Below are positions 8,494 to 20,746 of a stretch of 24,000 nt of DNA, piece after piece. Position numbers and translations under genes: made by a program. The stretch spans positions 1-24,000 of the forward strand of contig JBEKCQ010000055.1 of assembly GCA_050014795.1 (NCBI GenBank), given 5' to 3'. Source of the stretch: Terriglobia bacterium (lineage in GTDB: Bacteria; Acidobacteriota; Terriglobia; UBA7540). Each line of letters begins with the position of its first letter. Position 1 is the first letter of the stretch. The notes under the pieces are model-generated. The model searched no databases. It saw only the letters and a program-made list of their open reading frames with translations, and was not told the origin of the DNA.

Positions 8494-8571
8494 AGGCCCG
8501 TAGCTCAGCCCGGTTAGAGCGCTACCTTGACACGGTAGAGGTCTGGGGTTCGAGTCCCCACGGGCCTACCA
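8494..8571 (+). tRNA. tRNA-Val (anticodon GAC), CCA encoded
   Basis: Hand-folded cloverleaf: acceptor AGGCCCG/CGGGCCT, D stem GCTC/GAGC, anticodon stem CTACC/GGTAG. The anticodon loop is TTGACAC, the T stem is TGGGG/CCCCA with TTCGAGT loop, discriminator A, then CCA. Confidence 0.9.
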
Positions 8572-8588
8572 TACGGCGTTTCAGCCCA

Positions 8589-8610
8589 TGTAGCGGAAAA
8601 TGTAGCGGGT
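8589..8610 (+). repeat. 22-nt motif TGTAGCGG-AAAA-TGTAGCGGGT, copy 1 (18 nt after the tRNA end)
   Basis: An internal tandem of TGTAGCGG with 12-nt period. It matches 17747-17768 at 18 of 22 positions, differing only in the 4-nt spacer. Confidence 0.5.
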
Positions 8611-8813
8611 ACCTGTGTTGATTGGCTTTGACTGGTTTGGGTTGGCCACGCGCAGATTCGTCACAAGAGCAAAGCTGATCGTAAGATTATATGTACTCGC
8701 CATTTATGGTTGTGTAGAATTCAGTTTAGCTGGAGACGCGGATTGTCATATAACATTCGGGACCCGGAGTAGCCGTGGCAGAGTTCTTGGCGTGCCTTCG
8801 GACGAGGCGGTGC

Positions 8814-9263
8814 ATGGGCGAGCGGCAACGGTCTCGACGTGGGAAGCGAACCGAAGCACAGATCAGCTTCAACATGTCTCGGGTGCGGAGCAGCGGGTCC
8901 AGGATCGAGCGGATGTTGGAGGAGGCTCTCCGGAAGGCTGGCGTCAGACCGAAGAAACAGGCTGCAATTGTTGGGCGACCAGACTTTGTTTTCCGTGCGG
9001 CGCGCGTGGCTGTGTTTTGCGACAGTCACTTCTGGCACGGGTACAAATGGAAAGAAAGGAAGCATGAGATAAAAAGCAATCGCAAATTCTGGTTAGAAAA
9101 GATCCAGCACAATATCAAACGGGATCGATATGTCAACCGCACGTTGAGAAGAGCAGGATGGCTGGTCGTTCGCTTCTGGCAACATCAGATCCTGCATTCG
9201 CCCAGCAAGTGCGCGGCCAAAGTCAAGCAGGTTGTTACAGCTCGAAGGACCGGACTAATTTAG
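8814..9263 (+). CDS. vsr: very-short-patch repair endonuclease (Vsr, T:G mismatch)
   Basis: RSKNMSR-like ISFNMSRVRSSGSRIE, GRPDFVF, AVFCDSHFWHG, NRKFWLEKIQHNIKRDR and GWLVVRFWQH all match Vsr family blocks. The start at ATG 8814 follows GAGG. Confidence 0.85.
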   Translation: MGERQRSRRGKRTEAQISFNMSRVRSSGSRIERMLEEALRKAGVRPKKQAAIVGRPDFVFRAARVAVFCDSHFWHGYKWKERKHEIKSNRKFWLEKIQHNIKRDRYVNRTLRRAGWLVVRFWQHQILHSPSKCAAKVKQVVTARRTGLI

Positions 9264-9265
9264 AA

Positions 9266-10357
9266 ATGGCAATCGTTGCGCTTGACCTTTTTTGCGGTTG
9301 CGGTGGGGTGACCTACGGACTTGCAAGAGCTGGAATCAAGGTCGCCTTGGGTATAGACATCGACGAGCGCTGCAGGTTTACCTTCAGACTGAACAACCCT
9401 GGGACAAACTTCCTTGTGGCTGACATCCGCGATGTTTCGGCACAGACATTACTGAAACACGTCCCCCATCTTACCGAAAGTGACTTCTTGCTGATCGCAG
9501 CATGCGCTCCTTGCCAGCCTTTCTCCTCTCAAAACAGGTCCAAGAACAAGACGTCAGGTCGTGCGATCCTGAACGAAGTAGAAAGAATAGTGCGAGAGTT
9601 GCGTCCCGAGTTCTTGTTTCTTGAAAATGTAACAGGAATACAAAAGGTTCCCGGCTTCAGTGCATTTCATCGCCTGTTGCGAGCTTTACATAACCTCAAG
9701 TACAAAGTGGAGTTTCGCAGTATTGACGCACTCTGGTATGGAATCCCGCAGAGGCGAAAGCGCCTGGTCCTCCTGGCCTCTGTTTACGGAAAGATTCCTT
9801 GGCCTGAGCAGACTCACGGTTTTGGTCCTGGGCTGCAAACGCCGGTCACGGTTCGTGAAGCGATAGCGCACTACCCGCCTTTGCAGGCGGGTGAGGCACA
9901 TCCAACAGTGCCTAACCATATCGCAGCCCGTTTGAGCCCACGCAATCTGGAGAGGATTCGCGCCACGGCTTGTGACGGCGGTAGCCGTAGCGAGTGGCCT
10001 AGACGCTTAGCTTTGTCCTGTCACGATACGCACGATGGTCACGAAGACGTGTACGGGCGGCTCCGCTGGGATGCTCTCGCGCCAACCCTCACAACCAAAT
10101 GCACAAGCATTTCCAATGGAAGATTCGGTCATCCAGACCAAGATCGCGCAATTTCTGCGCGGGAGGCTGCAGCTTTGCAGGGTTTCGACGATCGATTCGT
10201 TTTTTATGGGGGACTGCGTCAGATATCCGTTCAGATAGGAAATTCCGTTCCACCTGTTCTCGCCGAAAGATTCGGGAATGCATTCAAAGCCGAGGCTGAG
10301 GCGCTGAACGCGAACAAGAAGAGAATGAAATGGGCCTTACTCCTGGCTGGCCGATGA
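9266..10357 (+). CDS. dcm: DNA (cytosine-5)-methyltransferase
   Basis: Motif I DLFCGCGG, motif IV APCQPFS (catalytic Cys), motif VI ENV, motif VIII QRRKRL, motif X GNSVPP. The ATG lies 2 nt after the vsr stop. Confidence 0.9.
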   Translation: MAIVALDLFCGCGGVTYGLARAGIKVALGIDIDERCRFTFRLNNPGTNFLVADIRDVSAQTLLKHVPHLTESDFLLIAACAPCQPFSSQNRSKNKTSGRAILNEVERIVRELRPEFLFLENVTGIQKVPGFSAFHRLLRALHNLKYKVEFRSIDALWYGIPQRRKRLVLLASVYGKIPWPEQTHGFGPGLQTPVTVREAIAHYPPLQAGEAHPTVPNHIAARLSPRNLERIRATACDGGSRSEWPRRLALSCHDTHDGHEDVYGRLRWDALAPTLTTKCTSISNGRFGHPDQDRAISAREAAALQGFDDRFVFYGGLRQISVQIGNSVPPVLAERFGNAFKAEAEALNANKKRMKWALLLAGR

Positions 10358-10380
10358 GTTGACTAGGCAGATGAGGATAC

Positions 10381-12171
10381 CTACAAAAGGTACTGGCCTA
10401 GGTGTTCCAGAGCGTTATCGTGAACAGCCTTGATGACTTCATTTATTTTGTTTTCTACTGAATCAAAGGTCAGAGCCATCCCCTTCTTCTCCATAGCATG
10501 TAAGGCTTCCATAATTATAATGTCAACAAATCGCTGAAAGTGATACTCGCGCCATCTGGGCGATTCGGCTCCGTGCTGCCTATAGATTGCTGCAGCAAGT
10601 GGTCTGGAAGTGTTGATCCAATAGATTCCTGCGCCAACGTCTTGTGGCCGCTGGTAAACCGGGTTATGACGCGAACTCAGATCGACAGTTTGGGTGATTC
10701 CGAGAGGGTCGGGACTGTAGCTTGAAAGAAGGACTACGGGATGCCGCGTTCCTTTCTTTGGCTGGTCGCCCGCCCCTCCGCCTTTTGCGGCACCTTCACC
10801 ACCAGTGCCCCCTTTCGTTCTTGAGGAAGGACTTGTTCCACCCCCCGATCCGTCGATGCCCGTTCCCCCCGAACCAGATCCGGGTTCGGGCCCACCGAGC
10901 ACTTGAGTTAAGAGTCTATCCATAAACTGATTCTTCCAAGTGTTCAGGATTTTGTTAAATTCGTCTGTCAGCCTCAGGTTCTGAAGCGTCCGCTCTTTTG
11001 CTTCTTCCTTTTCAATCTTCTTCCCGACCTCATCAACTTGCTCTGCGATCCACCTTAAAAGCGCCCGCGTTCTGCGGTTATCTATCAGTTTTTCTCGGTC
11101 GTTCTTGACAGAATCTTCTTTTGGATCCTCAAGAATAGGGCAGAAGCATTCACCAAAAATGAACTCAGCCTGCGCGTACTGTTTGATATGCACGAGTTCT
11201 TGGATTCTATACGAGGCAATGACACCGATCTCCCCGAGGATGTCAATGCAGTTCAGTTCTGAAACGCGACTATTCCGCCCGAAAGGCTCCTTTGCAACCA
11301 TTAAGGAAAGATCGCCGGCATGGAACTTCTTGCTTGCGAACTCGATTTCCTCAACGTCCCCGTCTTCTTCGTACGGAAGGACCCGCGGAATCGGGATAGC
11401 CGGGAGGCTTTCAAATCCGGGACGGAGCTCGATTTGCTCACCCACGAGACGCTCCCAAACGAGCTCCCCGTTGTGCAACACTCTTATCGGTTTCCGTTGG
11501 ACGATCTTCCGAGCCTGCGGGTGCAACTTCATTTTCTCACAGAGTCGCGAAACCCGAATTGGACTCCGGACGCCGTCTGGCCGAATTCCACGGACGACCG
11601 TGAAACCAGTTCCTCCCGTCAAGATGCTATCTTTTGTCCTTTCTGGGAGGTCGAGCTCTCCTATCTCCGCCAGCGTCAGCGCTTCTCTTGGTGCGCAGGA
11701 CCTGTTTTGGAGCCCACGGGCGAATCCGTACCTCCTGTTCTCACTAAACCCAAACACATTCAGCATCCCGCCGCGATACGTAATGAAATAGGAGCGTTCA
11801 AACATTTGGCGCATATAGAACTTGCCACCGTTGCCGTGCCCGCCGTAGGTTCGTTTCTTGAGGCCGCGCGAAGCAGCCTTCGGGTCCCCCCAACGTTTCA
11901 AAGCCTTGTCTATATCGTCTGCAGTCATCCCGCAAAAGTCGATACACTCGAAGCTTGCAGGCTCAGTGTGTCCGGCATCCGTGAAGTTCAGCACAATGTG
12001 CTGTTGGTCATCGGGGATCGCCGGTTCCTCCCGGATGTAGGCATCGACCGAGTTCTTTATCCACTCGGGTAGGCCTTTTTCGTGGTTGAACTTGAACTCA
12101 TTTCCGATGATATCCAGAAGGTGATCGTCGATCACATTAGGCTGTTCGATTATGGAGACTTTAAGTGCCAC
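10381..12171 (-). CDS. GHKL (HATPase_c_3 / MORC-like) ATPase with Gly-rich linker and uncharacterised C-terminal domain
   Basis: Bergerat-fold motifs: N-box EWIKNSVDA, G1-like IDFCGMT, G2 YGGHGNGGKFY. A roughly 50-aa Gly/Ser/Thr linker (GGPEPGSGSGGTGIDGSGGGTSPSS...GGGAGD) precedes a roughly 115-aa C-terminal domain. The GTG start follows GAGGAGGAAA and overlaps the upstream gene by 11 nt. Confidence 0.75.
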   Translation of the reverse strand: MALKVSIIEQPNVIDDHLLDIIGNEFKFNHEKGLPEWIKNSVDAYIREEPAIPDDQQHIVLNFTDAGHTEPASFECIDFCGMTADDIDKALKRWGDPKAASRGLKKRTYGGHGNGGKFYMRQMFERSYFITYRGGMLNVFGFSENRRYGFARGLQNRSCAPREALTLAEIGELDLPERTKDSILTGGTGFTVVRGIRPDGVRSPIRVSRLCEKMKLHPQARKIVQRKPIRVLHNGELVWERLVGEQIELRPGFESLPAIPIPRVLPYEEDGDVEEIEFASKKFHAGDLSLMVAKEPFGRNSRVSELNCIDILGEIGVIASYRIQELVHIKQYAQAEFIFGECFCPILEDPKEDSVKNDREKLIDNRRTRALLRWIAEQVDEVGKKIEKEEAKERTLQNLRLTDEFNKILNTWKNQFMDRLLTQVLGGPEPGSGSGGTGIDGSGGGTSPSSRTKGGTGGEGAAKGGGAGDQPKKGTRHPVVLLSSYSPDPLGITQTVDLSSRHNPVYQRPQDVGAGIYWINTSRPLAAAIYRQHGAESPRWREYHFQRFVDIIIMEALHAMEKKGMALTFDSVENKINEVIKAVHDNALEHLGQYLL

Positions 12172-12811
12172 GAGTTTCCTCCTCGTTGCCCGATCTTGCA
12201 GATGACGTCTTCAGCCTAATCATATCTGCAAACCTCTCCACCATAAACTGATGAAACCGAGCAACAGCGACTAAGGAAAGGTCATCGGGGTTCGCATCCG
12301 ATATCTCATCCAGTGCGGATTTCACTGTTTCCAAACGCCCAATGAAATCGTTCCTCGTGGTGCGAACGCTAACACCCAGGTACTCGAACAAGTCTGAATC
12401 AATGATCTCGTCTTGCTTATTCGCGAGAAACAATTTGAAGCCCTCGAGGTGCTTTATCCTTTCTAGTTCTATCTGGGCGCCGCGTTCGATTCGGTGGCCC
12501 AGACGGGCCGAAGGGGGGCGACCCCCCTCAATAGCCTGAAGTCTTTGTACTTCTGCTAAACCGTGGGATGTCAGGGAGAACATCTTGTTCGAGGCCGAAA
12601 CCATCCCCTTTTTTCGATAATCGTAAAGGGGCTTGTGAACAATATCTCCTGAGTCTGGAAACTCAGGATGTCCTTTCAAGTGGAAGTCGCTAGCGTAGTC
12701 CCTGAACGCTTGTACGACTATATCCTCGTATCGAACCTTCCGGCGCCCCCCGTCAGAAAGGCGGTACAGACTGAGCAAAACCTTTTGCGCCATCGACAAC
12801 TGAGAGCTCAC
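12161..12811 (-). CDS. hypothetical protein (216 aa), possible N-terminal winged-helix; operon partner of the GHKL ATPase
   Basis: GTG start with an upstream GGAGGAGG/GGAAG. The N-terminus MAQKVLLSLYRLSDGGRRKVRYEDIVVQAF looks wHTH-like. There is no catalytic motif I can name. The 11-nt overlap with the GHKL gene implies co-translation. Confidence 0.6.
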   Translation of the reverse strand: MSSQLSMAQKVLLSLYRLSDGGRRKVRYEDIVVQAFRDYASDFHLKGHPEFPDSGDIVHKPLYDYRKKGMVSASNKMFSLTSHGLAEVQRLQAIEGGRPPSARLGHRIERGAQIELERIKHLEGFKLFLANKQDEIIDSDLFEYLGVSVRTTRNDFIGRLETVKSALDEISDANPDDLSLVAVARFHQFMVERFADMIRLKTSSARSGNEEETRGT

Positions 12812-12972
12812 GGCCGTTCTTCCGCCTCCTCCGACTCTGAGATATGTCCTCTTGTGCGCGAAACCAATCTTAACATATGCTCATGTCGCTGGAGAGGAAA
12901 GGCGCAGCCTCGATAGCAGCTCTCTTCCCCCCGTTTTCAAGCACGAAGAGCCTGATTGCGAAGGGCATTTGT

Positions 12973-14628
12973 ATGAATGATATTCCGGACCTTCCGGCGC
13001 ACTTGTCCCAGCGGCTAATCGGGGAACTCGACCTTTCCACACGGGCTTATAACGCTCTGAGCAAACACGGCGTGCGCACAATCAGCGATCTTGTCAAATT
13101 AAGCGACGAGGAAATGCTGCGCCTACCCTGGTTTGGTACGAAATGCCTGAATGAGGTGCACCAACTAACTCAGTCGCTCCTGCTGAGCTCAGCAAGGGAT
13201 CATGCAACTCCCAAGGAAGGCTTTGACCTTGCCGAATTAGCGCAATCGCATCCGAAAGACGCGTCCACATCCCTGCCGACGGATTATAGTCTGAGTGAGT
13301 GGGCGGTCCCAACACCGGCCAAGGGAGACTTGGATACGCCGATTGAACGCCTGCATTTGTCGCCTCGGGCGGCGAAAGTGCTTGGCTACCTTGGGATCAA
13401 GACGATTCGACAATTGCTTCGTTGCCCCAAGAATGCACTGCGCAAACAACCGAACTTTGGGCGTGTAAGCTTGTATGAGTTGGAGCGCAAAGTCTTCGAC
13501 AGCCTTGAGGGAAGTCACCAGCACGACTTCTCTCTAGGGACCAAGGCATTCACGGCAAGACTGCTTGCCTGCCTCCCCGAGCGCCAACAGAGGGTGATCG
13601 CAGATAGATACGGGCTGTGGGACGGTATTGCGGAGACACTGCAGGACATCGGAGACAAGTTGGGTCTGACGCGTGAGCGTATACGTCAAATAGAAGATAA
13701 GAGCCTTCGTCGAATTCGTGGTCGATTTGGTCTCCACATTGTAGTCGCATTTCTGCGCGCGACGTTCAGCGAGGCGCTCTCCCATCGACTTAGCGGGTGC
13801 GCTGGAATCCTAAGCGAAGACGAAGCCATGCAGGGCATGGCGAATGATTGCACCCTCGAAGAGGCGGCGCTGGCAGTTGCCTTTATGCGGGACATATGCC
13901 CGACCGAGGATGACATATTCGGGCTCTGTCTACGCAAAGTGGGGGACGGCGTCTATTGCGTAGAGCCAGAAACGGCCGAACGCTATGAGAAGGTACTCGG
14001 ATTGATCGAGAGCGGACTCGAAGGGCGTGGGGGGCCAGTAGCGGAAGGGAAACTCTGTGACGAAGTGCTGGAACGAACAAGGGCCTCTGAGCATCTTGAC
14101 TGGAGGCCGCTTATCCAGCGAGTTCTCGCCGTCTCGCCCTCTTTAACTCGCCTACGAAATGGAACTGTATGTCTCTCTGGGTGGACTGAGGTTCGCGGTC
14201 GCGATTACCCCAGTCTGGCAGTAACAGCGCTCGTCGCCCTGGGCCGTCCCGCTCACTACAAGGAGATTTGGGAGAAGGCCATGGCGCTCTATCCGCGACT
14301 AGGTGAGCTTAGTATACATGCGATTCATAACCGCCTGACTTCCAGATCGGACAAGTTCGTGTGGGTCGGGAAAGGAACTTATGGACTGAAAGCATGGGGA
14401 CTCAAAAGACCTCCGTATATAAAGGACAAACTAACGGAGCTGCTTTCGGAGGCCAAGTACCCGCTCCCTTATTGGCATCTCAAGGTCAAGGTGCTGGAGG
14501 TGTGCAACTGTAAGGAGGAATCGGTGCGCATGACGTTGGACCTGAATCCCCGCATTTTCAGGAAATTCGCAGACGACCAATATGGTCTTCGCGAGCACTA
14601 CGAGCGAAGGACCCATCGCCAAGGCTAG
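12973..14628 (+). CDS. multi-HTH protein: 2x RNA polymerase alpha-CTD-like (HhH) + sigma-70 region 4 + C-terminal HARE-HTH-like domain
   Basis: Module 1 LDLSTRAYNALSKHGVRTISDLVKLSDEEMLRLPWFGTKCLNEV and module 2 LHLSPRAAKVLGYLGIKTIRQLLRCPKNALRKQPNFGRVSLYEL resemble RpoA-CTD. LPERQQRVIADRYGLWDGIAETLQDIGDKLGLTRERIRQIEDKSLRRIR is a textbook sigma-70 region 4. The C-terminal ALGRPAHYKEIWEKAMALYPRLGELSIHAIHNRLTSRSDKFVWVGKGTYGLKAWG resembles HARE-HTH / RpoE-delta N-domain. The start is ATG 12973 (MNDIPD); the track alternative is 12877. Confidence 0.7.
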   Translation: MNDIPDLPAHLSQRLIGELDLSTRAYNALSKHGVRTISDLVKLSDEEMLRLPWFGTKCLNEVHQLTQSLLLSSARDHATPKEGFDLAELAQSHPKDASTSLPTDYSLSEWAVPTPAKGDLDTPIERLHLSPRAAKVLGYLGIKTIRQLLRCPKNALRKQPNFGRVSLYELERKVFDSLEGSHQHDFSLGTKAFTARLLACLPERQQRVIADRYGLWDGIAETLQDIGDKLGLTRERIRQIEDKSLRRIRGRFGLHIVVAFLRATFSEALSHRLSGCAGILSEDEAMQGMANDCTLEEAALAVAFMRDICPTEDDIFGLCLRKVGDGVYCVEPETAERYEKVLGLIESGLEGRGGPVAEGKLCDEVLERTRASEHLDWRPLIQRVLAVSPSLTRLRNGTVCLSGWTEVRGRDYPSLAVTALVALGRPAHYKEIWEKAMALYPRLGELSIHAIHNRLTSRSDKFVWVGKGTYGLKAWGLKRPPYIKDKLTELLSEAKYPLPYWHLKVKVLEVCNCKEESVRMTLDLNPRIFRKFADDQYGLREHYERRTHRQG

Positions 14629-14813
14629 GCTCGTCTGTTTCTGCAAGCGCACAATCGCATTGAGGGTATGACCTGCAATCGAGCTCATATTCAAGCACTC
14701 ACGCGCAGGGTTCGCCTCGCGCCCCTCCCTGCTGAGCAAAAGCTTGAAGTACCGCAATGATAGACGTAATCTTACGGAAACTCGCGACCCAGATAGCTGC
14801 AAAGGAGAGGAGG

Positions 14814-15611
14814 ATGGGCCACCAAATGCTACTTAATCGTGACGAAATCATGAGCAATGAGGTCATCCGGAATGGCGCCGAGAGTGCCTATCGCGCTGCA
14901 AGCTACGACCTGCGAGTCGGAAGAATCCTCACAACCTCTGGGGAGGAAAAGACGACCTTCATAATTCCGCCTCAAGGCATGGTTGACGTAATCTCACAGG
15001 AGAGGGTCATTTTGAAAGGGAGCATCGCCGGGTATGCTACGGTGAAAACGAGCTTGTGCCGGAATGGCATCCTCGCGATAAACATCGGGATTATTGACCC
15101 CGGTTATGAAGGGCTCATCTCCAGCACCCTCATAAACTTCAGCAAATGCCCATTCGCTCTCAGAGCCGGCGACCCTTTCCTTCGACTCACATTCCATCAG
15201 TACACTGCGCCCCGAACCCTTCCGGCTGCTCCATCCAAGGGGGATGAGGAATACGTTCAAGAACGAAAGAAGATGGTGCAAGAACGATTCTCTGCCACGT
15301 TTCTGGATGTCCCTCAGACGATTGAAAACTTGACCCCACCCTTAATCAAAAGGGTTCTAGATGATTGGAAGAGTGCTCTTTACAAGTGGGCACCGCTTTT
15401 TGCCTTCGTTATTGCTCTGCTCGCCTTTCTTGTGAACGTTGGTGCCACTCGCTTCGGGCAGCCCAAGGTGTCGAAGGAGCAATTAAAGGCAGAGGTGGTT
15501 GCCGAAATTCGCGATGAGAACCACAGGATTTTTGAAGAACGCCTGCAGCAAGTGGAGCGGCAGACTCAGCAATTACTTACTGAGAGGGAGCATCAGAAAA
15601 AGGTACAGTGA
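14814..15611 (+). CDS. dCTP deaminase/dUTPase-fold (Dcd-like) protein with C-terminal TM helix and coiled coil
   Basis: ASYDLRVG, VKTSLCRNG and IGIIDPGYEG...ALRAGDPFLRLTF align without effort to E. coli Dcd blocks (ATVDVRLG, GRSSLARLG, RIDPGWSG...ALRPGMLIGALSF). A hydrophobic helix WAPLFAFVIALLAFLVNVGA (nt 15387-15446) is followed by a charged heptad-like tail. The ATG 14814 is preceded by AAGGAGAGGAGG. Confidence 0.75.
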   Translation: MGHQMLLNRDEIMSNEVIRNGAESAYRAASYDLRVGRILTTSGEEKTTFIIPPQGMVDVISQERVILKGSIAGYATVKTSLCRNGILAINIGIIDPGYEGLISSTLINFSKCPFALRAGDPFLRLTFHQYTAPRTLPAAPSKGDEEYVQERKKMVQERFSATFLDVPQTIENLTPPLIKRVLDDWKSALYKWAPLFAFVIALLAFLVNVGATRFGQPKVSKEQLKAEVVAEIRDENHRIFEERLQQVERQTQQLLTEREHQKKVQ

Positions 15612-15637: not shown

Positions 15638-16630
15638 GTGGACAGCTTCGATTCCGTCGACGAGATTCAAAAGTGGGTTCTGGAATCATTGCTGGCACGG
15701 GGTGGCTCAACTCGGCCACGTGGTTCGGCCACACTTGAACTATTCCCAGTCTCGTTCATGCTTCGACATCCACGAATGAGATGTGTTACGAACCCGGCGA
15801 GACGATGGATTTTGCCATTGGCCCTGGGGGAATTTTGCTGGCACCTCTCCGGCTCAAATGATGTTCACTTCATCGAATATTACTCCAAACGCTGGAGAGA
15901 ATTCGCAGAGAGCGGTTCCTCGACCATCTGTGGCAGCTCTTATGGTCATAAGATATTTTCCCGAAGCGCCGGTGAACCCAGTCAATGGGACCGGCTTGTC
16001 GAGCTACTGCGAGTCGACCAACAATCGAGGCGTGCAGTGCTTGGTCTCTTCGACCCGGCTCGTGGCCTCAATCAAGATGAGAGAGATGTTGCCTGCGCCT
16101 GCTCCTTGCAGCTCATGATTCGGTCTGGTCGGCTCTTAGCCTTTGTCTACATGCGGAGCAATGATGCCATCTGGGGTCTGCCTTACGACATTTTCTTTTT
16201 CACTATGCTCCAGGAGTTGCTTGCCTGCGAGCTTGGCTTAGAACTTGGCTATTATTATCACTTCGCGGCTTCGCTTCACCTCTACGAACGTCACTTTGAA
16301 CTTGCCCACCGAATCGTTGAGACCGAGCCAGGTTCGCACTTTGAAATGCCACCGATGAGTGTGCACAAACAGGTTGACGATTTTCTGCGATTGGAGGCCG
16401 TACTCAGGTCCAGGCACGAGCTGTTACCCCGGCAGGTCGGAACGCTACATCCCTACTGGCGTGATTTGCTGGCCGTACTCGAGTGGTATAGTCAGGCAAA
16501 GGGTGCCGGGGGTTATCAAGCGGTGGCTGAGAAGGTTCCTACACCGTCCCCATATGGTCTGCTGTTGAGAAATATGTTGCCCAAAGCAGAGGCGGGAACG
16601 CGTGCCTATGCGGCGGATTATTCAGATTGA
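15638..16630 (+). CDS. thymidylate synthase (ThyA) family enzyme, predicted deoxycytidylate-specific (hydroxymethylase or methylase type)
   Basis: Gap-free block YMRSNDAIWGLPYDIFFFTMLQELLACELGLELGYYYHFAASLHLYERH against E. coli ThyA [50 protein letters not shown]. Also a catalytic Cys block VACACSLQLMI, SRRAV (phosphate-binding Arg pair) and LGEFCWHL (Glu). The GTG start follows GGAAAGGAAG. There is a roughly 90-aa C-terminal extension. Confidence 0.8.
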   Translation: MDSFDSVDEIQKWVLESLLARGGSTRPRGSATLELFPVSFMLRHPRMRCVTNPARRWILPLALGEFCWHLSGSNDVHFIEYYSKRWREFAESGSSTICGSSYGHKIFSRSAGEPSQWDRLVELLRVDQQSRRAVLGLFDPARGLNQDERDVACACSLQLMIRSGRLLAFVYMRSNDAIWGLPYDIFFFTMLQELLACELGLELGYYYHFAASLHLYERHFELAHRIVETEPGSHFEMPPMSVHKQVDDFLRLEAVLRSRHELLPRQVGTLHPYWRDLLAVLEWYSQAKGAGGYQAVAEKVPTPSPYGLLLRNMLPKAEAGTRAYAADYSD

Positions 16631-17099
16631 GGCTCACGCAAAGTTCCTGCAAATAGCTAAGCGCGTGAGTTTAGGGTCGAACTGTGTGCGTGGCCAAGTT
16701 GGAGTCGTGCTTGTCCAGGGGGGCAAGATTGTTTCGACGGGCTGGAACGGGGTGCCGACATCATTTCGCGATTGCCTTTCCGCAGGCTGTCCGCGATGCA
16801 AGCACCGGACTTCCACGGGAAGAGGGTATGACCGGTGTATCTGCGTCCACGCTGAACAGAGCGCCATTGCTACGGCTGCCCGCAACGGAATTCCTCTGAG
16901 GAGTGCAACAATGTATGTGAATCTCCGCCCTTGCCTTGGGTGCCTGAATCTGGCACTCACAGCCGGTGTTCGGAAAATCGTCTATGAAGTATCATGGACA
17001 TATCCAAGCAACATAGAGGCAGCCTATGAGAGGATTGCCAAAAGGCTGTCGTCTTTCCTTCGCGTCGATTCTCGTCGGAATAAGGCTGGAATTCGATGA
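16602..17099 (+). CDS. dCMP deaminase (ComEB / deoxycytidylate deaminase family, zinc-dependent)
   Basis: CVHAEQSAI (HAE) and RPCLGC (PCxxC) zinc motifs, plus an upstream Cys cluster CLSAGCPRCKH typical of dCMP deaminases. It is a single 165-aa domain. The start (GTG 16602 or ATG 16608) overlaps the 3' end of the ThyA-like gene. Confidence 0.85.
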   Translation: MPMRRIIQIEAHAKFLQIAKRVSLGSNCVRGQVGVVLVQGGKIVSTGWNGVPTSFRDCLSAGCPRCKHRTSTGRGYDRCICVHAEQSAIATAARNGIPLRSATMYVNLRPCLGCLNLALTAGVRKIVYEVSWTYPSNIEAAYERIAKRLSSFLRVDSRRNKAGIR

Positions 17100-17686: not shown

Positions 17687-18811
17687 TTATTGTACAACAA
17701 GTTGCGGCCTTCTTTCCTGCCCGCCAATTCCAGATTGGAGGGCAGTTGTAGCGGCTTTTGTAGCGGGTTCAGCCACTTTCCCAGGTGCCAGAATCAGTTC
17801 TACGGCCTTTCTTTTCAATTCGTTAGCGGGGTGCATGTAGCGGCGTGTCATCACAATTGACGCGTGCCCCGCCAGTTCTTGAATCACTGCCAGCGGCACA
17901 CCGGCGTCACTGAGACGCGAGCAAAAGGTGTGGCGCAGCTGGTGAAAAGTGATATGCGGAATTTCGGCAATCTTAACCGCCCGGCAGAAGGAATGTTTGA
18001 TATCTCCAACATGCTCCTTGGAGTTCTTTGGTGAAGGGAACACCCACTCGCCCTCGACCTCTTCGCGCCACTGTTGCAGCGTTGCGCGCAGCACCGCGTT
18101 CACGTACATCACCCGCCCTTGGCCTGCCCTGGTCTTCGACTTCCGCACGATCAGAATGCCGTTGTCCAGGTCGATGTCGGCCCAGCGTAGTCGAAGGATT
18201 TCGCCGCGCCGGAGGCCCGTATACACGGCCACCAAGATAATCGGCTTCAGGTGCGGTGCGAGGAAATGCAGTTCCGGGTGGTCACAGGCCTGCAGGAGCT
18301 TCGCCTCTTCCTCATACGAAAGGACGCGCTCGACTGGCGGTCCGTCCAGCTTGAATAGTTTGGCGTCACGGGCGCCGTTGGTTTCGACCAACTCCCACTT
18401 CACCGCCGTGCTCAGCATGCTTTTGACCAGGCCGACCTCACGGTTGATTGAAGATTTCTTCAAGCCCGCGTCCAGGCGCTTCTGCTTGAATTTCTCCACG
18501 GTGTAAGCTGAGATTTCATTCAACCTGTACCGCCCGAGGAACGGAACCAAGGCACGCGGGACGTAGTACCTTTCTACCGTGAAGGCCGGTTTGTTGGCTT
18601 CGCTGTATTTCAGGTAGCGAGCGGCAAAGTCAGAAAACTTCGGATTCTCCTTCTTCGCCAGGCCGTGTTTCCCAAGGGCCAGCTGGGCCTTGTGAACCGA
18701 CTCAATCCTGAGTGCCATCTTGCGGCTTGTCAGTTTCGTTGGCCGCTGGATATGCTGGCCTTCGAACCAGAAGTGGTACCACCAGACTCCCCCGCGCTTG
18801 TAGATGCTCAT
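17687..18811 (-). CDS. int: site-specific tyrosine integrase
   Basis: MSIYKRGGVWWYHFWFEGQ N-terminus, Arg box GLRRGEILRLRW, HQLRHTFCSRL, and LAGHASIVMTRRYMH (catalytic Tyr). The ATG 18811 is preceded by GAGGGAGAAG. Confidence 0.9.
   Translation of the reverse strand: MSIYKRGGVWWYHFWFEGQHIQRPTKLTSRKMALRIESVHKAQLALGKHGLAKKENPKFSDFAARYLKYSEANKPAFTVERYYVPRALVPFLGRYRLNEISAYTVEKFKQKRLDAGLKKSSINREVGLVKSMLSTAVKWELVETNGARDAKLFKLDGPPVERVLSYEEEAKLLQACDHPELHFLAPHLKPIILVAVYTGLRRGEILRLRWADIDLDNGILIVRKSKTRAGQGRVMYVNAVLRATLQQWREEVEGEWVFPSPKNSKEHVGDIKHSFCRAVKIAEIPHITFHQLRHTFCSRLSDAGVPLAVIQELAGHASIVMTRRYMHPANELKRKAVELILAPGKVAEPATKAATTALQSGIGGQERRPQLVVQ
17747..17768 (+). repeat. 22-nt motif TGTAGCGG-CTTT-TGTAGCGGGT, copy 2 (inside the integrase 3' coding end)
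   Basis: Matches 8589-8610 at 18 of 22 positions. On the reverse strand it encodes PATKAATT, about 20 codons before the int stop. Confidence 0.5.
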
Positions 18812-18995
18812 TTTCTTCTCCCTCAACGGGCTGACGATGCTGATCGACGAATTCCTCCAGGTCACTTTCGCGGAATCGCACCAGGCGGCCAATCTTGCGG
18901 TGGGAAATCCGCCTCTGGGCGACCCAGAGGTAGAGCGTTTGCGGTTTCACCCCCAGCTTGGCGGCGGCTTCTGCAATGGTTAGAAGCTTTTCCAT
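18702..18995 (-). CDS. xis: excisionase / HTH_17 (MerR-like) DNA-binding protein
   Basis: MEKLLTIAEAAAKLGVKPQTLYLWVAQRRISHRKIGRLVRFRESDLEEFV is a typical excisionase-family HTH. The ATG 18995 is preceded by GGGGGTGGG. The reading frame continues 110 nt past the int start. Confidence 0.75.
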   Translation of the reverse strand: MEKLLTIAEAAAKLGVKPQTLYLWVAQRRISHRKIGRLVRFRESDLEEFVDQHRQPVEGEENEHLQARGSLVVPLLVRRPAYPAANETDKPQDGTQD

Positions 18996-19529: not shown

Positions 19530-20447
19530 CTAATTCTTGAAGGTGACTTGGGAGCGGGCTTTTCGGGCTCGTCTAATCCCCTTCTCAATCGTGTTGTATT
19601 CATGGCGTCGCTCCAAGGCGAGGAGCGCCGTAGCGAGGTGTTTGGGTTGCCAGGTCTCTGGCTTTTCCCACGATGCAGCCACGTCCTGCCTGCCGTAAAG
19701 AATCTCAGCGAACGCTTCACCTCCGAGTATGTATGACCCTCCCCGCATTCGGGACACCTGCTTCCACAATCTCTCTCGAACGCTTTTTAGCACTCCGGCC
19801 TTGGTGACGGCTTTGGACTTCTCTTGTTCAATCGCAGCTCTGACGACATTGTGAAGGTTTAGGCATTCGGCGACCAGAACCTTGAACCTTCTCATCAGCC
19901 ACTTGTCTTCCTCGCTTCCCCTGCGCCGCCCTTTGGGTCGCTTAGGGGAAGCCTTCCATCCTTCAAATATTTCCACGAACTCCTCATCGAATTTAGGGTG
20001 ATGAAACTGGTCGCAGTAAAGAACCTGGAGCACGTTTTTCCAAGTCTGCGCGTAGGCAGCGTATCCGACCGTTACCAGTTGGGACCAAATGGTGTCTTCA
20101 CCGGCAGCCGGGACCTCCCACAAAGCTTCTTGAAACATGTCTGCCAGGTTTATCCCGAGGCCAGATGGAAGGGCCTTGTTCGTCTTAGCGATCTGCGGTG
20201 GAGGCGCTGGGAATGTCATCACGATTTGCACGACACGATGTCTATCGCGCAATGAGAGCTGCGGGGGCGGACATTCGCTCACAAGCCAATTGCGGAGTTC
20301 GGCCTCTATCGAGCGTGGAAACCTCATCGGTACTCCTAGGTCCTTGCGCCACGCTTGCTGCATTTCGGCGTCTGGACCACGCCACTTTTTGCCCCGAGGT
20401 TCTTTCTCCTGCTCGTGATTGGCCTTTGAATCTAGTGGCTCTGCCAT
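19530..20447 (-). CDS. hypothetical protein (305 aa)
   Basis: Long ORF with ordinary amino-acid composition, on the same strand as xis-int and divergent from the primase gene. I recognise no motif. Confidence 0.6.
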   Translation of the reverse strand: MAEPLDSKANHEQEKEPRGKKWRGPDAEMQQAWRKDLGVPMRFPRSIEAELRNWLVSECPPPQLSLRDRHRVVQIVMTFPAPPPQIAKTNKALPSGLGINLADMFQEALWEVPAAGEDTIWSQLVTVGYAAYAQTWKNVLQVLYCDQFHHPKFDEEFVEIFEGWKASPKRPKGRRRGSEEDKWLMRRFKVLVAECLNLHNVVRAAIEQEKSKAVTKAGVLKSVRERLWKQVSRMRGGSYILGGEAFAEILYGRQDVAASWEKPETWQPKHLATALLALERRHEYNTIEKGIRRARKARSQVTFKN

Positions 20448-20746
20448 GACGAATCCCCCTCCACAAGATGTGCTGTTTGGAGTCTACACGAGACGAGAAC
20501 GATTCGGCACTGCTCCCTGCTAGGTGCGAAATGCAGGGCATGTTTTGACCCCATTACGTGAATTCACGCCTTTCCCCCCCTCTGATATTCCTCCTCATGG
20601 CAAGAACATTTCTCGAGTAGGCGAGACAGTTCTTCGGCCGAAAGTAAATTGAATTGGAAGCGGCGCCAGGCAGCGCCGGCAGTTTTTCCCACCTCCTGGG
20701 TTCTGCCACGCTGCCTGGCGTCGGCCAAAAAACTCAGGAGGGGTTC

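Follow-up and report, generated by a model that had tools for sequence, protein, structure and literature searches.

A GHKL ATPase and winged-helix gene pair forms the core of a mobile cassette linked to DNA methyltransferases

Introduction

What is the role of a GHKL-type ATPase and a small winged-helix protein encoded together beside a dcm-vsr pair, when neither carries a recognisable nuclease? The question was raised by the initial annotation of a 24,000-nt stretch of DNA from a Terriglobia bacterium (assembly GCA_050014795.1, contig JBEKCQ010000055.1, positions 1 to 24,000), hereafter the window. The combination of GHKL-S5 ATPases with DCM and VSR is well established for restriction-modification systems (PMC2292703, Iyer, Abhiman and Aravind 2008). 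ATPases of this kind were predicted in restriction-modification neighbourhoods in 2008 and few have been studied since; the eukaryotic MORC silencers are thought to have descended from them. HARE-HTH domains have been proposed to discriminate DNA modification (PMC3417536, PMC10853773), and the DNA-binding half of PglW consists of an alpha-CTD and a triple winged helix (PMC12839542).

Results

Two open reading frames, here called A and B, were found as initially annotated, with the same coordinates, 11-nt overlap and internal GAGGAGG (Table 1). Both are genuine genes, since 93 and 762 database relatives were obtained for A and B, respectively (for B at E ≤ 1e-3, the best with E = 0 and 82% identity); none of the A homologues is annotated. 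GGAGGAGG stands ahead of the start of A itself, and in most homologous loci the A stop lies only a few nt from the B start. The intergenic region between A and the divergent gene C is presumably shared regulatory DNA; a scan of positions 8500-15000 for consensus promoters and terminators gave nothing above chance.

Table 1. Coordinates of features in the window, with the basis of each assignment.
Feature	Position (nt)	Strand	Residues and basis
tRNA-Val(GAC)	8494..8571	plus	ARAGORN; left boundary of the low-GC island with the cassette
vsr, very-short-patch T:G mismatch endonuclease	8775..9263	plus	TIGR00632, 108 bits, over cutoff
dcm, C5-cytosine DNA methyltransferase	9158..10357	plus	PF00145 E=2.5e-49; TIGR00675; PADLOC MTase_II E=6e-78
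Gene B	10381..12171	minus	596-aa ORF, GTG start
B C-terminal domain	10384..10740	minus	478-596; AlphaFold2, three short strands and four helices
B Gly/Ser/Lys-rich linker	10750..10893	minus	427-474; 48 residues, disordered, pLDDT below 50
B 59-residue single helix	10900..11076	minus	366-424; AlphaFold2 secondary structure
B S5-fold transducer-like middle domain	11137..11559	minus	about 205-345; Foldseek, conservation
B GHKL (Bergerat) ATP-binding domain	11572..12171	minus	1-200; invariant columns, Foldseek
Gene A	12161..12811	minus	216-aa ORF, GTG start
A/B overlap	12161-12171	minus	11 nt
B ribosome-binding site GAGGAGG	12184-12178	minus	within A 3' end, 6 nt ahead of GTG at 12171; read from sequence
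A helical domain	12206-12484	minus	110-202; C-terminal
A winged helix-turn-helix	12527-12811	minus	1-95; N-terminal
A-C divergent intergenic region	12812..12876		65 bp, by coordinates
Gene C	12877..14628	plus	583 aa; NCBI start M33 gives 551 aa
C domains		plus	RNAP alpha-CTD-like HhH 45-96 and 151-206; sigma-70 region 4 HTH 229-281; HARE-HTH 448-507; Pfam
Tyrosine integrase	17687-18892		further along the island
AEP primase	20654-23122		further along the island

Neither single-sequence nor profile searches with A, B or the C-terminal domain of B produced a meaningful match in Pfam, NCBIfam, PADLOC, PHROGs or PDB sequences. The AlphaFold2 model of B (mean pLDDT 78) matched MORC2 (9cdh, E = 6e-9) in Foldseek, together with Hsp90, TRAP1, MORC3 and SMCHD1 (E-values up to 1e-7), at a probability of 1.00 and over about 430-600 columns, and GHKL proteins were its top matches in a viral structure library. 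MORC2, MORC3 and SMCHD1 act as clamps that dimerise in an ATP-dependent manner; they compact or silence DNA and are responsive to epigenetic marks. The motifs quoted in the initial annotation, ExxxNxxDA and GGHGNGGKF, are present in B and invariant among 58 homologues (E36xxxN40xxD43A and G110-GHGNGGK117-F). In sets of 58 and 61 sequences, the latter across both subfamilies described below, motifs I (E36/N40/D43), II (D78/G81), III (G110-K117) and IV (T191/G195) show invariance or a conservation of at least 95%; the ATP-lid region (residues 93-115) has low pLDDT in the model. HATPase_c_3 (PF13589) gave weak, sub-threshold matches in 13/58 B relatives (best E 0.0018); its gathering threshold was not reached, and B of the window had no match at E ≤ 0.1. 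By motifs and modelled fold, B belongs to the GHKL (Bergerat-fold) ATPases and is predicted to bind and hydrolyse ATP.

The roughly 300-aa middle region noted earlier exists, and is better described as a putative S5-type transducer domain followed by a long helix. The limits of the middle domain are our reading of the secondary structure in the model; alignments of 430-450 columns to the ATPase modules of MORC2, MORC3 and SMCHD1 cross it with an rmsd of 8-10 Å. The stretch that follows (340-362) is conserved, with R359 at 100%, and the helix, a putative coiled-coil arm, ends in an N406/L409/W412 motif conserved in both subfamilies. A flexible Gly-rich linker and a compact C-terminal domain had also been proposed, and the model has disorder and a compact fold in those places. 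Conserved residues of the C-terminal domain are P478, S483, P489, Q507, W518, N520, W540, R541, Y543 and R547. The initial annotation could not assign this domain. Its profile gave 167 matches in 1.84 billion (1.84e9) representative proteins, confined to the C-termini of this family, with the domain C-terminal in every near-full-length match, and gave no match to PDB sequences; by this profile search the domain is family-specific, found nowhere else.

The AlphaFold2 model of A (pLDDT 87.7, topology H-H-beta-H-beta-beta) points to a winged helix joined to a helical domain, with weak fold matches (E 0.04-0.3) to the winged helices of PadR, DtxR, Cdc6 and MukE/F. The sensitive sequence and fold searches that had been suggested for the two proteins thus returned folds (GHKL and a putative S5 domain for B, a weakly matched winged helix for A) and no sequence match.

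The synteny survey compared 48 non-redundant loci from the subfamily of the window, each flanked by 4.5 kb or more on either side. A adjoins B on the same strand in 45/48 of these loci, and a sister subfamily (28% identity) in which the gene order is B-A has A beside B in 71/80, so the proposed co-expression holds up across the family despite the inverted order. In the sister subfamily, two Big_2 Ig-like domains stand in for the Gly-rich linker of B. The B family was found in at least 187 of 185,579 species genomes (about 0.1%), with hosts in Terriglobia, Nitrospirota, Patescibacteria, Verrucomicrobiota, Planctomycetota, Actinomycetota, Myxococcota and Ignavibacteria. The A-B pair of the supposed two-gene operon is genuine, but conservation extends beyond these two genes. 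Partners of the pair include a small protein, s75 (71-75 aa), for which no similar small ORF was found in the window. The cassette family was not recognised by Pfam, NCBIfam, PADLOC or RefSeq naming, and no published description of the A-B-C gene set was found in the literature searched.

Gene C had been taken for a neighbouring sigma/HARE-HTH gene. It is instead a conserved third component, present in 34/48 loci of the window's subfamily and, in many, co-directional with B and overlapping it; some of the 14/48 loci without a detectable C have a small Mrr_N protein in its stead. The HARE-HTH domain (PF05066) of C scored 16.7 bits in the window against a cutoff of 25.9, and the C homologues P0403 (26.8) and P0418 (30.6) passed the gathering score at the aligned position. 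PADLOC and NCBIfam models showed partial similarity of C to the DNA-binding half of PglW and to MzaA sigma4, and larger C variants are built from repeated HTH modules. C was considered as a true sigma factor and rejected; it cannot act as one because regions 2 and 3 are absent. Identity to the window proteins in most phylum-level comparisons was 21-33% for C, 32-50% for A and 41-52% for B, with Terriglobia relatives closer, and judged by these values C is the fastest-evolving component.

Catalytic PCQ, ENV, QRR and GN motifs were read directly in the window Dcm translation, and the true start of dcm is likely the Met at about 9266, just past the vsr stop. The convergent arrangement of dcm with gene B was verified, with the gap of 23 nt (10358-10380). 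Vsr is a dcm accessory that repairs T:G damage from 5-methylcytosine. In the window's subfamily, Dcm was found in 34/48 loci and Vsr in 27/48; the Dcm start often lies at the B stop codon, giving the order A-B-Dcm-Vsr, and three loci have a Dcm-Vsr fusion directly after B. The 14/48 loci without Dcm within 5 kb include s71-A-B-C-Fic loci and Ignavibacteria C-A-B-HNH loci; constitutive restriction would be toxic to these hosts unless they encode a methyltransferase at another site. In the sister subfamily a PF01555 N6/N4 methyltransferase (or Dcm) was found in 61/80 loci, with Dcm in only one. Vsr was detected in 1/86 fetched sister-subfamily and viral loci, which use N6/N4 methyltransferases. 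The initial annotation had asked for a gene-neighbourhood survey and named unlinked homologues as evidence against its reading; across the 48 and 80 loci, methyltransferases were the commonest partner (71-76%). A and B are the core of a widespread, unannotated mobile cassette that nearly always lies beside a DNA methyltransferase.

Mantel correlations were r = 0.90 for A with B, 0.75 for B with Dcm and 0.77 for C with Dcm, values inflated by shared ancestry. The partial correlation of C with Dcm given B was modest (0.34), against 0.09-0.17 for A with Dcm given B. Judged by these sequence comparisons, the dcm-vsr pair co-diversifies with the cassette.

The cassette is mobile, being found on integrative islands, on a phage contig and on a conjugative plasmid. 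In the window, GC drops from 0.62 to 0.52 at tRNA-Val, and no att repeat of the tRNA-Val end was found within the window. Thirteen loci contain serine recombinases, and PIN/AbrB pairs, Shedu SduA_C and SoFic-like Fic genes are found as neighbours of the cassette. On a viral contig, one cassette is flanked by terminase and portal; another is carried by the conjugative plasmid pCTYH.Ch1_3 of a cultured Ensifer adhaerens isolate. B had no match in a phage GenBank collection.

No nuclease signature conserved in A, B or C was found by sequence, profile or whole-protein fold searches, and the residues of the B C-terminal domain conserved across both subfamilies include no metal-binding acidic cluster; the initial annotation had likewise seen no effector motif. 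A possible PD-(D/E)xK site in B near D310/E341 was rejected, as its third position is not Lys. Clustering of 81 and 80 loci gave no recurrent helicase or nuclease neighbour, apart from HNH in five Ignavibacteria loci and single cases. The Ignavibacteria HNH protein had a single weak match to SUVH9 (E = 1.4), which would correspond to an SRA-like reading.

Discussion

The cassette is best read as a new form of the paraMORC restriction-modification theme. In MORC and paraMORC1-5 (PMC2292703), as in the cassette, the GHKL domain is N-terminal and keeps its ATP motifs, the C-terminal extension is specific to the family, linkage to DCM and Vsr recurs, and the spread is patchy and laterally mobile; their S5 domain has a putative counterpart in B. 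However, about 70% of the MORC neighbourhoods in that study have a superfamily-II helicase, with RE-fold, HNH, HKD or TIR nucleases, and those of paraMORCs are comparable, whereas the cassette has neither helicase nor nuclease and is partnered by A, s75 and the multi-HTH C; B also falls below the HATPase_c_3 threshold and has a C-terminal domain of its own. VcSduA, a Shedu type I-D/paraMORC3 protein for which anti-phage defence has been shown by experiment (PMC12137116), likewise has a GHKL ATPase, but fused to a DUF4263 PD-(D/E)xK nuclease domain that B lacks.

Other known systems are more distant. The alpha-CTD and HTH array of C is homologous to PglW at about 780-1040 (E down to 4e-15), and BREX type 2/Pgl also has methylation-based self/non-self discrimination with a nuclease that was long not evident (PMC12839542). 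Yet the scanned proteins of the window and related loci match no PglZ, BrxC, PglX or other BREX model apart from the partial PglW matches of C, and the BREX ATPase is AAA+/P-loop where that of the cassette is GHKL. For MZA, given as mzaABCDE (Gao et al. 2020, as cited in PMC9523054), no PADLOC model was matched by B, P0102, P0062 or P0273, hence no MzaB-type GHKL match, and no full-length MzaA sigma factor, MzaC, MzaD or MzaE was found. MutL, with its GHKL-S5 head, long disordered linker and C-terminal domain, resembles B and the putative S5 domain of B in layout and also works alongside Vsr, but B has no DNA_mis_repair or MutL_C match (Pfam, NCBIfam) and has the extra 59-residue helix. MORC2, MORC3 and SMCHD1, the best structural matches to the ATPase module, share 12-14% identity with B, which lacks CW, hinge or other eukaryotic reader domains; the functional parallel is one we infer.

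With moderate confidence, we read the cassette as a mobile exclusion system of restriction-modification-like type, gated by methylation, with an ATP-driven DNA clamp as its basis and a probable role in defence. B, with its MutL-like layout of ATPase head, long helix, flexible tether and private C-terminal domain, would dimerise and act as an ATP-gated clamp. A, made in a fixed ratio with B by translational coupling, may be its adaptor or DNA-contact subunit, and C, an array of DNA-binding modules, would target the complex to DNA and read its methylation state. Dcm would mark the host's own DNA and Vsr would only mend T:G damage derived from 5-methylcytosine. C and A would bind unmethylated incoming DNA, which the B clamp would trap or compact, leading to a block of replication or transcription or to hand-over to a nuclease supplied in trans.

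If the role is defensive, the cassette either contains a concealed nuclease of a new fold or keeps DNA out without cutting it, and either outcome would widen the known repertoire of methylation-based immunity. The family is broad, ranging from Patescibacteria to Acidobacteriota and tied to methyltransferases of two chemical classes, and would offer a tractable bacterial model of a MORC-like clamp that reads DNA modification; the Ensifer adhaerens plasmid copy, from a cultured isolate, makes the question directly testable. That immunity is entirely nuclease-free, with a MORC/SMCHD1-like clamp loaded by winged-helix and HARE-HTH readers onto unmarked DNA and silencing or blocking it by entrapment or compaction, is a tentative proposal that we consider rather unlikely. 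In that case the ring would be closed by the Gly-rich tether (or Ig-domain spacer) together with the private C-terminal domain, and eukaryotic MORC-type epigenetic silencing would have in the cassette a prokaryotic counterpart and perhaps an antecedent.

It is similarly doubtful that the cassette encodes a classical restriction enzyme that cuts unmethylated DNA, with B as ATP-dependent motor, as in the designs of paraMORC3 and paraMORC5 or of MutL, and a cryptic nuclease in the B C-terminal domain, the A helical domain or C at about 290-445/510-583. In MutL, paraMORC3, paraMORC4 and paraMORC5 the part C-terminal to GHKL-S5 holds a nuclease, known or suspected (PMC2292703), and the Shedu protein VcSduA combines GHKL with PD-(D/E)xK (PMC12137116); restriction nucleases often evade HMM detection, and tight methyltransferase linkage is expected of a true restriction-modification system. 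D488, D511, Q507, R508 and N520 are invariant in the B C-terminal domain of the window's subfamily, but D488 and D511 fall below 90% across both subfamilies, and the residues at or above 90% (Q507, W518, N520, R541, Y543, R547) form no metal-binding acidic cluster. The A helical domain is all-alpha, unlike PD-(D/E)xK, HNH and GIY-YIG folds, larger C variants merely repeat HTH modules, no Pfam, PADLOC or PDB profile matched any nuclease, and a separate HNH gene in some loci fits a core without a nuclease of its own. A further explanation, to which we assign little likelihood, is that A, B and C sense invading DNA or hijacked RNA polymerase and trigger an adjacent Fic AMPylase, PIN RNase or HNH protein in abortive defence, the methyltransferases being independent neighbours or having another role. 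Variable slots are indeed present (Fic after C, PIN/AbrB directly upstream of B in eight sister-subfamily loci, HNH after B in Ignavibacteria), and the Fic protein matches SoFic and PDC-S04 defence models. However, no other partner comes close in frequency to the methyltransferases, which are often coupled to B or A at the level of translation and co-diversify with the core; PIN/AbrB and Fic are also widespread as free-standing genes of toxin-antitoxin or defence type that cluster in islands, and the window carries no Fic, PIN or HNH effector.

Two readings without defence were also weighed. The sigma region 4 and alpha-CTD modules of C are of kinds that, in RNA polymerase, make contact with promoter DNA and the beta-flap; eukaryotic MORC and SMCHD1, the best fold matches of B, are silencers, and the cassette is always on mobile elements. 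It is nevertheless improbable that the cassette is a regulator encoded by the element, in which C would be a sigma-like transcription factor and A and B would remodel or silence DNA in a chromatin-like way, controlling expression or maintenance of the mobile island, with methylation serving as the epigenetic switch. Sigma regions 2 and 3 are absent from C, and C itself is missing from 14/48 loci; the flanking cargo varies by locus and therefore provides no common regulon; and both the methyltransferase class swap and neighbours of defence type (Shedu, SoFic-like Fic, PIN/AbrB, HNH) are characteristic of conflict systems. There is only a slight chance that B and A are a portable MutL surrogate that stimulates the adjacent Vsr at 5mC-deamination T:G mismatches, like the MutL of E. 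coli, and travels with dcm-vsr into hosts without a compatible MutL. The B layout, the Vsr adjacency and the Dcm-Vsr fusions would suit it, as would the many Patescibacteria hosts with reduced genomes, and a functional MutL-Vsr interaction is established according to work cited in PMC2292703. Against it, the sister subfamily keeps A and B with N6/N4 methyltransferases and hardly any Vsr, Fic-type and HNH-type loci lack both Dcm and Vsr, C and s75 are left unexplained, and MutL_C and DNA_mis_repair signatures are absent.

A topoisomerase was rejected, as the Toprim domain and the catalytic-Tyr winged helix are absent. An Hsp90/HtpG-like chaperone had fold E-values equal to those of MORC, and was set aside on rarity, mobility and methyltransferase linkage: B is not a housekeeping gene, because it occurs in so small a share of species genomes and on mobile elements.

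Genes A and B

Both genes are real. Of the candidates scored, 762 were relatives of B, the 596-aa putative GHKL-S5 ATPase, at E ≤ 1e-3, the best non-identical one being 82% identical over the full length; A, the 216-aa winged-helix-like protein, had 93 relatives. Every named relative of either protein was a "hypothetical protein", and none carried a precomputed Pfam domain. The minus strand across the A/B junction reads ...GGC AAC GAG GAG GAA ACT CGT GGC ACT TAA, so the stop codon of A was placed at 12163-12161 and the GTG of B at 12171-12169. The same read confirmed the 11-nt overlap described in the initial annotation and put the GAGGAGG ribosome-binding site of B at 12184-12178, 6 nt before its GTG. 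Upstream of A was its own GGAGGAGG. The 23-nt gap noted between the dcm and B stop codons was also verified.

Features of the 24-kb stretch. Coordinates are from mechanical ORF calls for protein-coding genes.
Feature	Coordinates	Strand	Remarks
tRNA-Val(GAC)	8494-8571		left edge of low-GC island
vsr	8775-9263	plus	T:G mismatch endonuclease
dcm	9158-10357	plus	C5-cytosine methyltransferase; ORF overlaps vsr by 106 nt
B	10381-12171	minus	596 aa, GTG start
A	12161-12811	minus	216 aa, GTG start
C	12877-14628	plus	583-aa protein with alpha-CTD, sigma4 and a probable HARE-HTH
dCTP-deaminase-like protein	14757-15611	plus	C-terminal hydrophobic/coiled-coil tail
Thymidylate-synthase-like protein	15638-16630	plus	
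dCMP deaminase	16602-17099	plus	
Tyrosine integrase	17687-18892	minus	island gene
305-aa ORF, unannotated	19530-20447	minus	island gene
AEP-TOTE primase	20654-23122		island gene, with PriCT_1 and DUF3631

HMM alignments to Dcm began at residue 36-42. The Met codon at ~9266, just past the vsr stop, is probably the true dcm start. Here vsr precedes dcm, opposite to their order in E. coli.

Conserved gene neighbourhood

Gene maps were first drawn for the loci of six diverged B homologues. A small A-like gene lay directly 5' of B, and C (RNA_pol_A_CTD, Sigma70_r4 and sometimes HARE-HTH) adjoined the pair, often on the same strand and overlapping the 3' end of B; most of the six also carried Vsr and a C5 methylase. 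A survey of one genome per species then found B relatives in 187 of 185,579 species, and the best 80 loci were examined, all of them from MAGs. The hosts of these 80 were Terriglobia, Nitrospirota, many Patescibacteria, Verrucomicrobiota, Planctomycetota, Solirubrobacterales, Myxococcota, Ignavibacteria and Clostridia. ORFs were called mechanically and annotated with HMMs built iteratively from the window proteins; neighbour families were defined by home-built HMMs and BLAST clusters, with a Pfam check on representatives only.

Components were counted in 48 non-redundant loci with flanks of at least 4.5 kb. A stood directly before B in 45 of the 48, and C and Dcm were each detected in 34, Vsr in 27 and s75, a small protein of 71-75 aa, in 24; 14 loci lacked a nearby Dcm and 14 lacked a detectable C. 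The A/B pairing of the initially annotated two-gene operon was therefore upheld, but its limits were drawn too narrowly, since C, Dcm, Vsr and s75 recur in a larger unit. In many loci Dcm starts at the B stop codon, giving the order A-B-Dcm-Vsr, and three loci carry a Dcm-Vsr fusion. Other arrangements were C-A-B followed by an HNH protein of ~245 aa without Dcm (Ignavibacteria), s71-A-B-C-Fic without Dcm (Nitrospirota-type loci), and, in Solirubrobacterales loci without C, an Mrr_N winged-helix protein of 164-223 aa 5' of A.

The highly conserved s75 protein (motif ERFKRLA..RTN..L..LRVLGNCSNRS.Y.Y) is encoded just 5' of A or B in both B subfamilies, including an Ensifer plasmid (L005:7130-7357, L010:7163-7378, L178:6689-6916 and ~60 more loci). 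Pfam had no match for it, and neither the window nor the Terriglobia relative L001 encodes it. The protein probably represents a fourth component of the system.

In most loci outside Terriglobia, identity to the window protein was 41-52% for B, 32-50% for A and 21-33% for C, with Dcm falling into two tiers (~40% and ~23-31%); the Terriglobia loci L001 and L012 were closer in every component. Mantel tests on pairwise distances, which shared ancestry inflates, gave 0.90 for A~B, 0.86 for C~B, 0.75 for B~Dcm and 0.77 for C~Dcm. These correlations are supportive of a methylase inherited with the cassette. Partial Mantel values given B, subject to the same inflation, were 0.34 for C~Dcm versus 0.09-0.17 for A~Dcm; C would thus track Dcm slightly better than A does, which lends some support to a role of C in specificity.

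The sister subfamily

A profile of the B C-terminal domain, excised from the alignment and run against 1.84 billion representative proteins, matched 167 proteins at E ≤ 1e-3, and had no match in the PDB. The domain was C-terminal in every near-full-length match (590-800 aa); the short matches are presumably gene fragments from short contigs. By this distribution, the domain is private to the B family.

The same search brought up sister proteins 745-796 aa long, among them P0273, which shares 28% identity with B over the ATPase head and helix and 34% over the C-terminal domain. Because two Big_2 Ig-like domains stand in P0273 at the position of the Gly-rich linker, the linker of B may serve as a spacer or tether. 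From metagenomes, 80 sister-subfamily loci were obtained, in which the gene order is inverted, with B followed immediately by A in 71. The next gene encodes a PF01555 N6/N4 DNA methyltransferase (E = 7.5e-37; PADLOC Type II MTase, E = 5e-106). Of the 80 loci, 61 had a methyltransferase, and the methyltransferase linkage anticipated for B homologues was thus borne out in both subfamilies. Among the 86 loci from the metagenome and viral scans, Dcm and Vsr were each found once. The slot 5' of the sister B is variable, being filled by s75, weak HARE-HTH proteins, Mrr_N proteins, RHH-type proteins, C, or a PIN/AbrB pair.

Judged by this gene content and order, A and B form the invariant core, with a DNA methyltransferase as a constant partner whose chemical class is interchangeable; such a swap would be expected of a self-marking module in a system resembling restriction-modification. 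Since Vsr travels with Dcm rather than with A and B, it is most likely a 5mC damage-repair accessory and not an effector.

Structure of A, B and C

Neither A nor B matched Pfam, PADLOC or NCBIfam at E ≤ 0.1, PHROGs gave nothing meaningful, and no PDB sequence was matched in single-sequence or profile searches. Structures were predicted from alignments of 58 (B) and 34 (A) sequences. The B model (mean pLDDT 78.4) has an N-terminal alpha/beta domain and a mixed middle domain, followed by a long single helix (residues 366-424), a disordered stretch (427-474) and a compact C-terminal domain (478-596), in which four helices accompany three short strands. A Foldseek search of the PDB returned MORC2 (9cdh, E = 6e-9), Hsp90, TRAP1, MORC3 and SMCHD1, each with probability 1.00, and the alignments to the MORC/SMCHD1 ATPase modules (~430-450 columns) spanned the GHKL domain and the putative S5-type transducer. 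The best matches in a viral structure library were Hsp90-like proteins, rIIA and topoisomerase II ATPases. The Bergerat motifs E36xxxN40xxD43, D78xxG81, G110GHGNGGK117 and T191...G195 were invariant in the 58-sequence alignment; with the distant sister subfamily added they remained at least 95% conserved, and R359 was 100% conserved. PF13589 (HATPase_c_3, the MORC/MutL-type model) gave below-threshold matches in 13 of the 58 members (best E 0.0018). The "clear Bergerat fold" of the initial annotation is therefore correct, but it is fold and motif evidence that shows it.

The A model (pLDDT 87.7) has a winged-helix topology at residues 1-95 and a helical domain at 110-202. Its fold matches were weak (PadR, DtxR, IclR, Cdc6 and MukE/F winged helices, E 0.04-0.3); calling A wHTH-like is reasonable but falls short of proof.

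C matched only sigma4 and alpha-CTD in the PDB, and sigma regions 2 and 3 were not found in it. In its homologues, HARE-HTH scored over the Pfam cutoff. Homology links the alpha-CTD/HTH array of C to the half of PglW that binds DNA (E down to 4e-15), and its sigma4 region to MzaA. C is modular (L005:9841-12252), with one to four copies of alpha-CTD, sigma4, and between one and three of the HARE-HTH-containing region; the larger homologues (L034 and L059; up to 1027 aa) are built by repetition of the alpha-CTD and HARE-HTH-region modules. Patescibacteria versions have an added GyrA C-terminal beta-pinwheel, which places a DNA-wrapping domain beside a GyrB-like ATPase without a cleavage domain.

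Search for an effector

The residues of the B C-terminal domain conserved in both subfamilies are P478, S483, P489, Q507, W518, I519, N520, W540, R541, Y543 and R547. D488 and D511 are invariant in the window's subfamily and fall below 90% conservation across both; the pattern does not look like a metal-dependent nuclease signature, and an interaction or dimerisation surface would fit better. The conserved E29, D30, K76 and D140 of A, together with structural Gly and Pro residues, lie in the winged helix and the all-helical domain, and C contains DNA-binding modules only. On these grounds the earlier reading of "no recognisable nuclease" holds under much deeper searching. The separate HNH genes of a few variants also suggest a core without its own nuclease.

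In the Dcm-less Ignavibacteria loci, the ~245 aa protein with a C-terminal HNH motif is encoded directly after B (L075:11786-12520, L080:6640-7380, L081:5011-5745). A Y..D...LIYEG.. pattern in its N-terminal half recalls SRA, the one match behind this likeness being to SUVH9 at E = 1.4. SRA domains flip 5mC, and, if the SRA reading is true, these loci would be modification-dependent variants. In a Moranbacteria locus (L041:11773-12624), a 283-aa protein with a weak sigma4-like N-terminal HTH and a C-terminal HNH nuclease follows an apparently truncated B; it may be a C-slot variant with a nuclease.

Proposed mechanism and comparison with known systems

The ATPase domains of MutL, MORC, Hsp90 and type II topoisomerases form dimers when ATP binds and work as gated clamps. 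The mechanism proposed here is based on this behaviour and on the proposal for restriction-modification-linked paraMORCs (PMC2292703). B would dimerise via its C-terminal domain and/or long helix, and, as in MutL, ATP would make the tethered ATPase heads shut. A, produced at a constant ratio to B, would link B to DNA, while C, or the Mrr_N and HARE-HTH proteins that take its place, would recruit the complex to DNA and read whether that DNA is methylated. The host would be shielded by the cassette methyltransferase, and incoming unmethylated DNA would be clamped and either blocked without cleavage or handed to a nuclease. We put the chance that the cassette is a defence or exclusion system, gated by a methyltransferase and with an A-B clamp at its core, at about even. 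As for the effector step, a nuclease-free one is regarded as rather unlikely, and one relying on a cryptic nuclease is likewise considered improbable.

The nearest described kind is the paraMORC restriction-modification assemblage (PMC2292703), which shares with the cassette the GHKL plan, probably with its S5 domain, a private C-terminal extension, DCM/VSR linkage and mobility. Helicases and nucleases are typical of paraMORC operons, whereas neither was recognised in the cassette. The partners A, s75 and C are new. MutL has only its layout in common with B, and what BREX/Pgl has in common with the cassette is limited to its methylation logic and a DNA-binding array like that of PglW. No description of this gene set was found in the literature searched, which is not proof of absence.

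Mobility

GC content drops from ~0.62 to 0.52 right after tRNA-Val. No att repeat was found within the 24-kb window, so the right end of the island probably lies beyond 24000. Three pyrimidine-nucleotide genes follow directly 3' of C on the same strand and could represent a nucleotide-depletion defence or a base-hypermodification pathway; no conserved linkage to the cassette was found, such genes turning up in 1-2 of the 92 sequences searched (the first 91 loci fetched, and the window).

Serine recombinases flank 13 loci, and PIN/AbrB pairs, ParB-methylases and Shedu SduA_C nucleases recur nearby; the Fic genes match two defence models, SoFic and PDC-S04. On a 44-kb viral contig (L093:9962-13841; IMG/VR UViG_3300033149_006035), a sister B-A-methyltransferase module lies between the terminase large subunit and the portal/head protease, and therefore phages also carry it. 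A tblastn search of 72,556 plasmids gave one copy, which was the only one found in a cultured isolate, on the conjugative plasmid pCTYH.Ch1_3 of Ensifer adhaerens CTYH.Ch1 (L178, NZ_CP118613.1 59223-62548). RefSeq lists all three of its genes as "hypothetical protein": s75 (E = 3e-25 to the home-built HMM), B of 800 aa (E = 9e-48) and A of 229 aa (E = 1.7e-10). Lying 4 kb 5' of this cassette, and separated from it by genes for an AAA ATPase and a hypothetical protein, is an N6/N4 methyltransferase of the cognate type (54211-55464; 53% identical).
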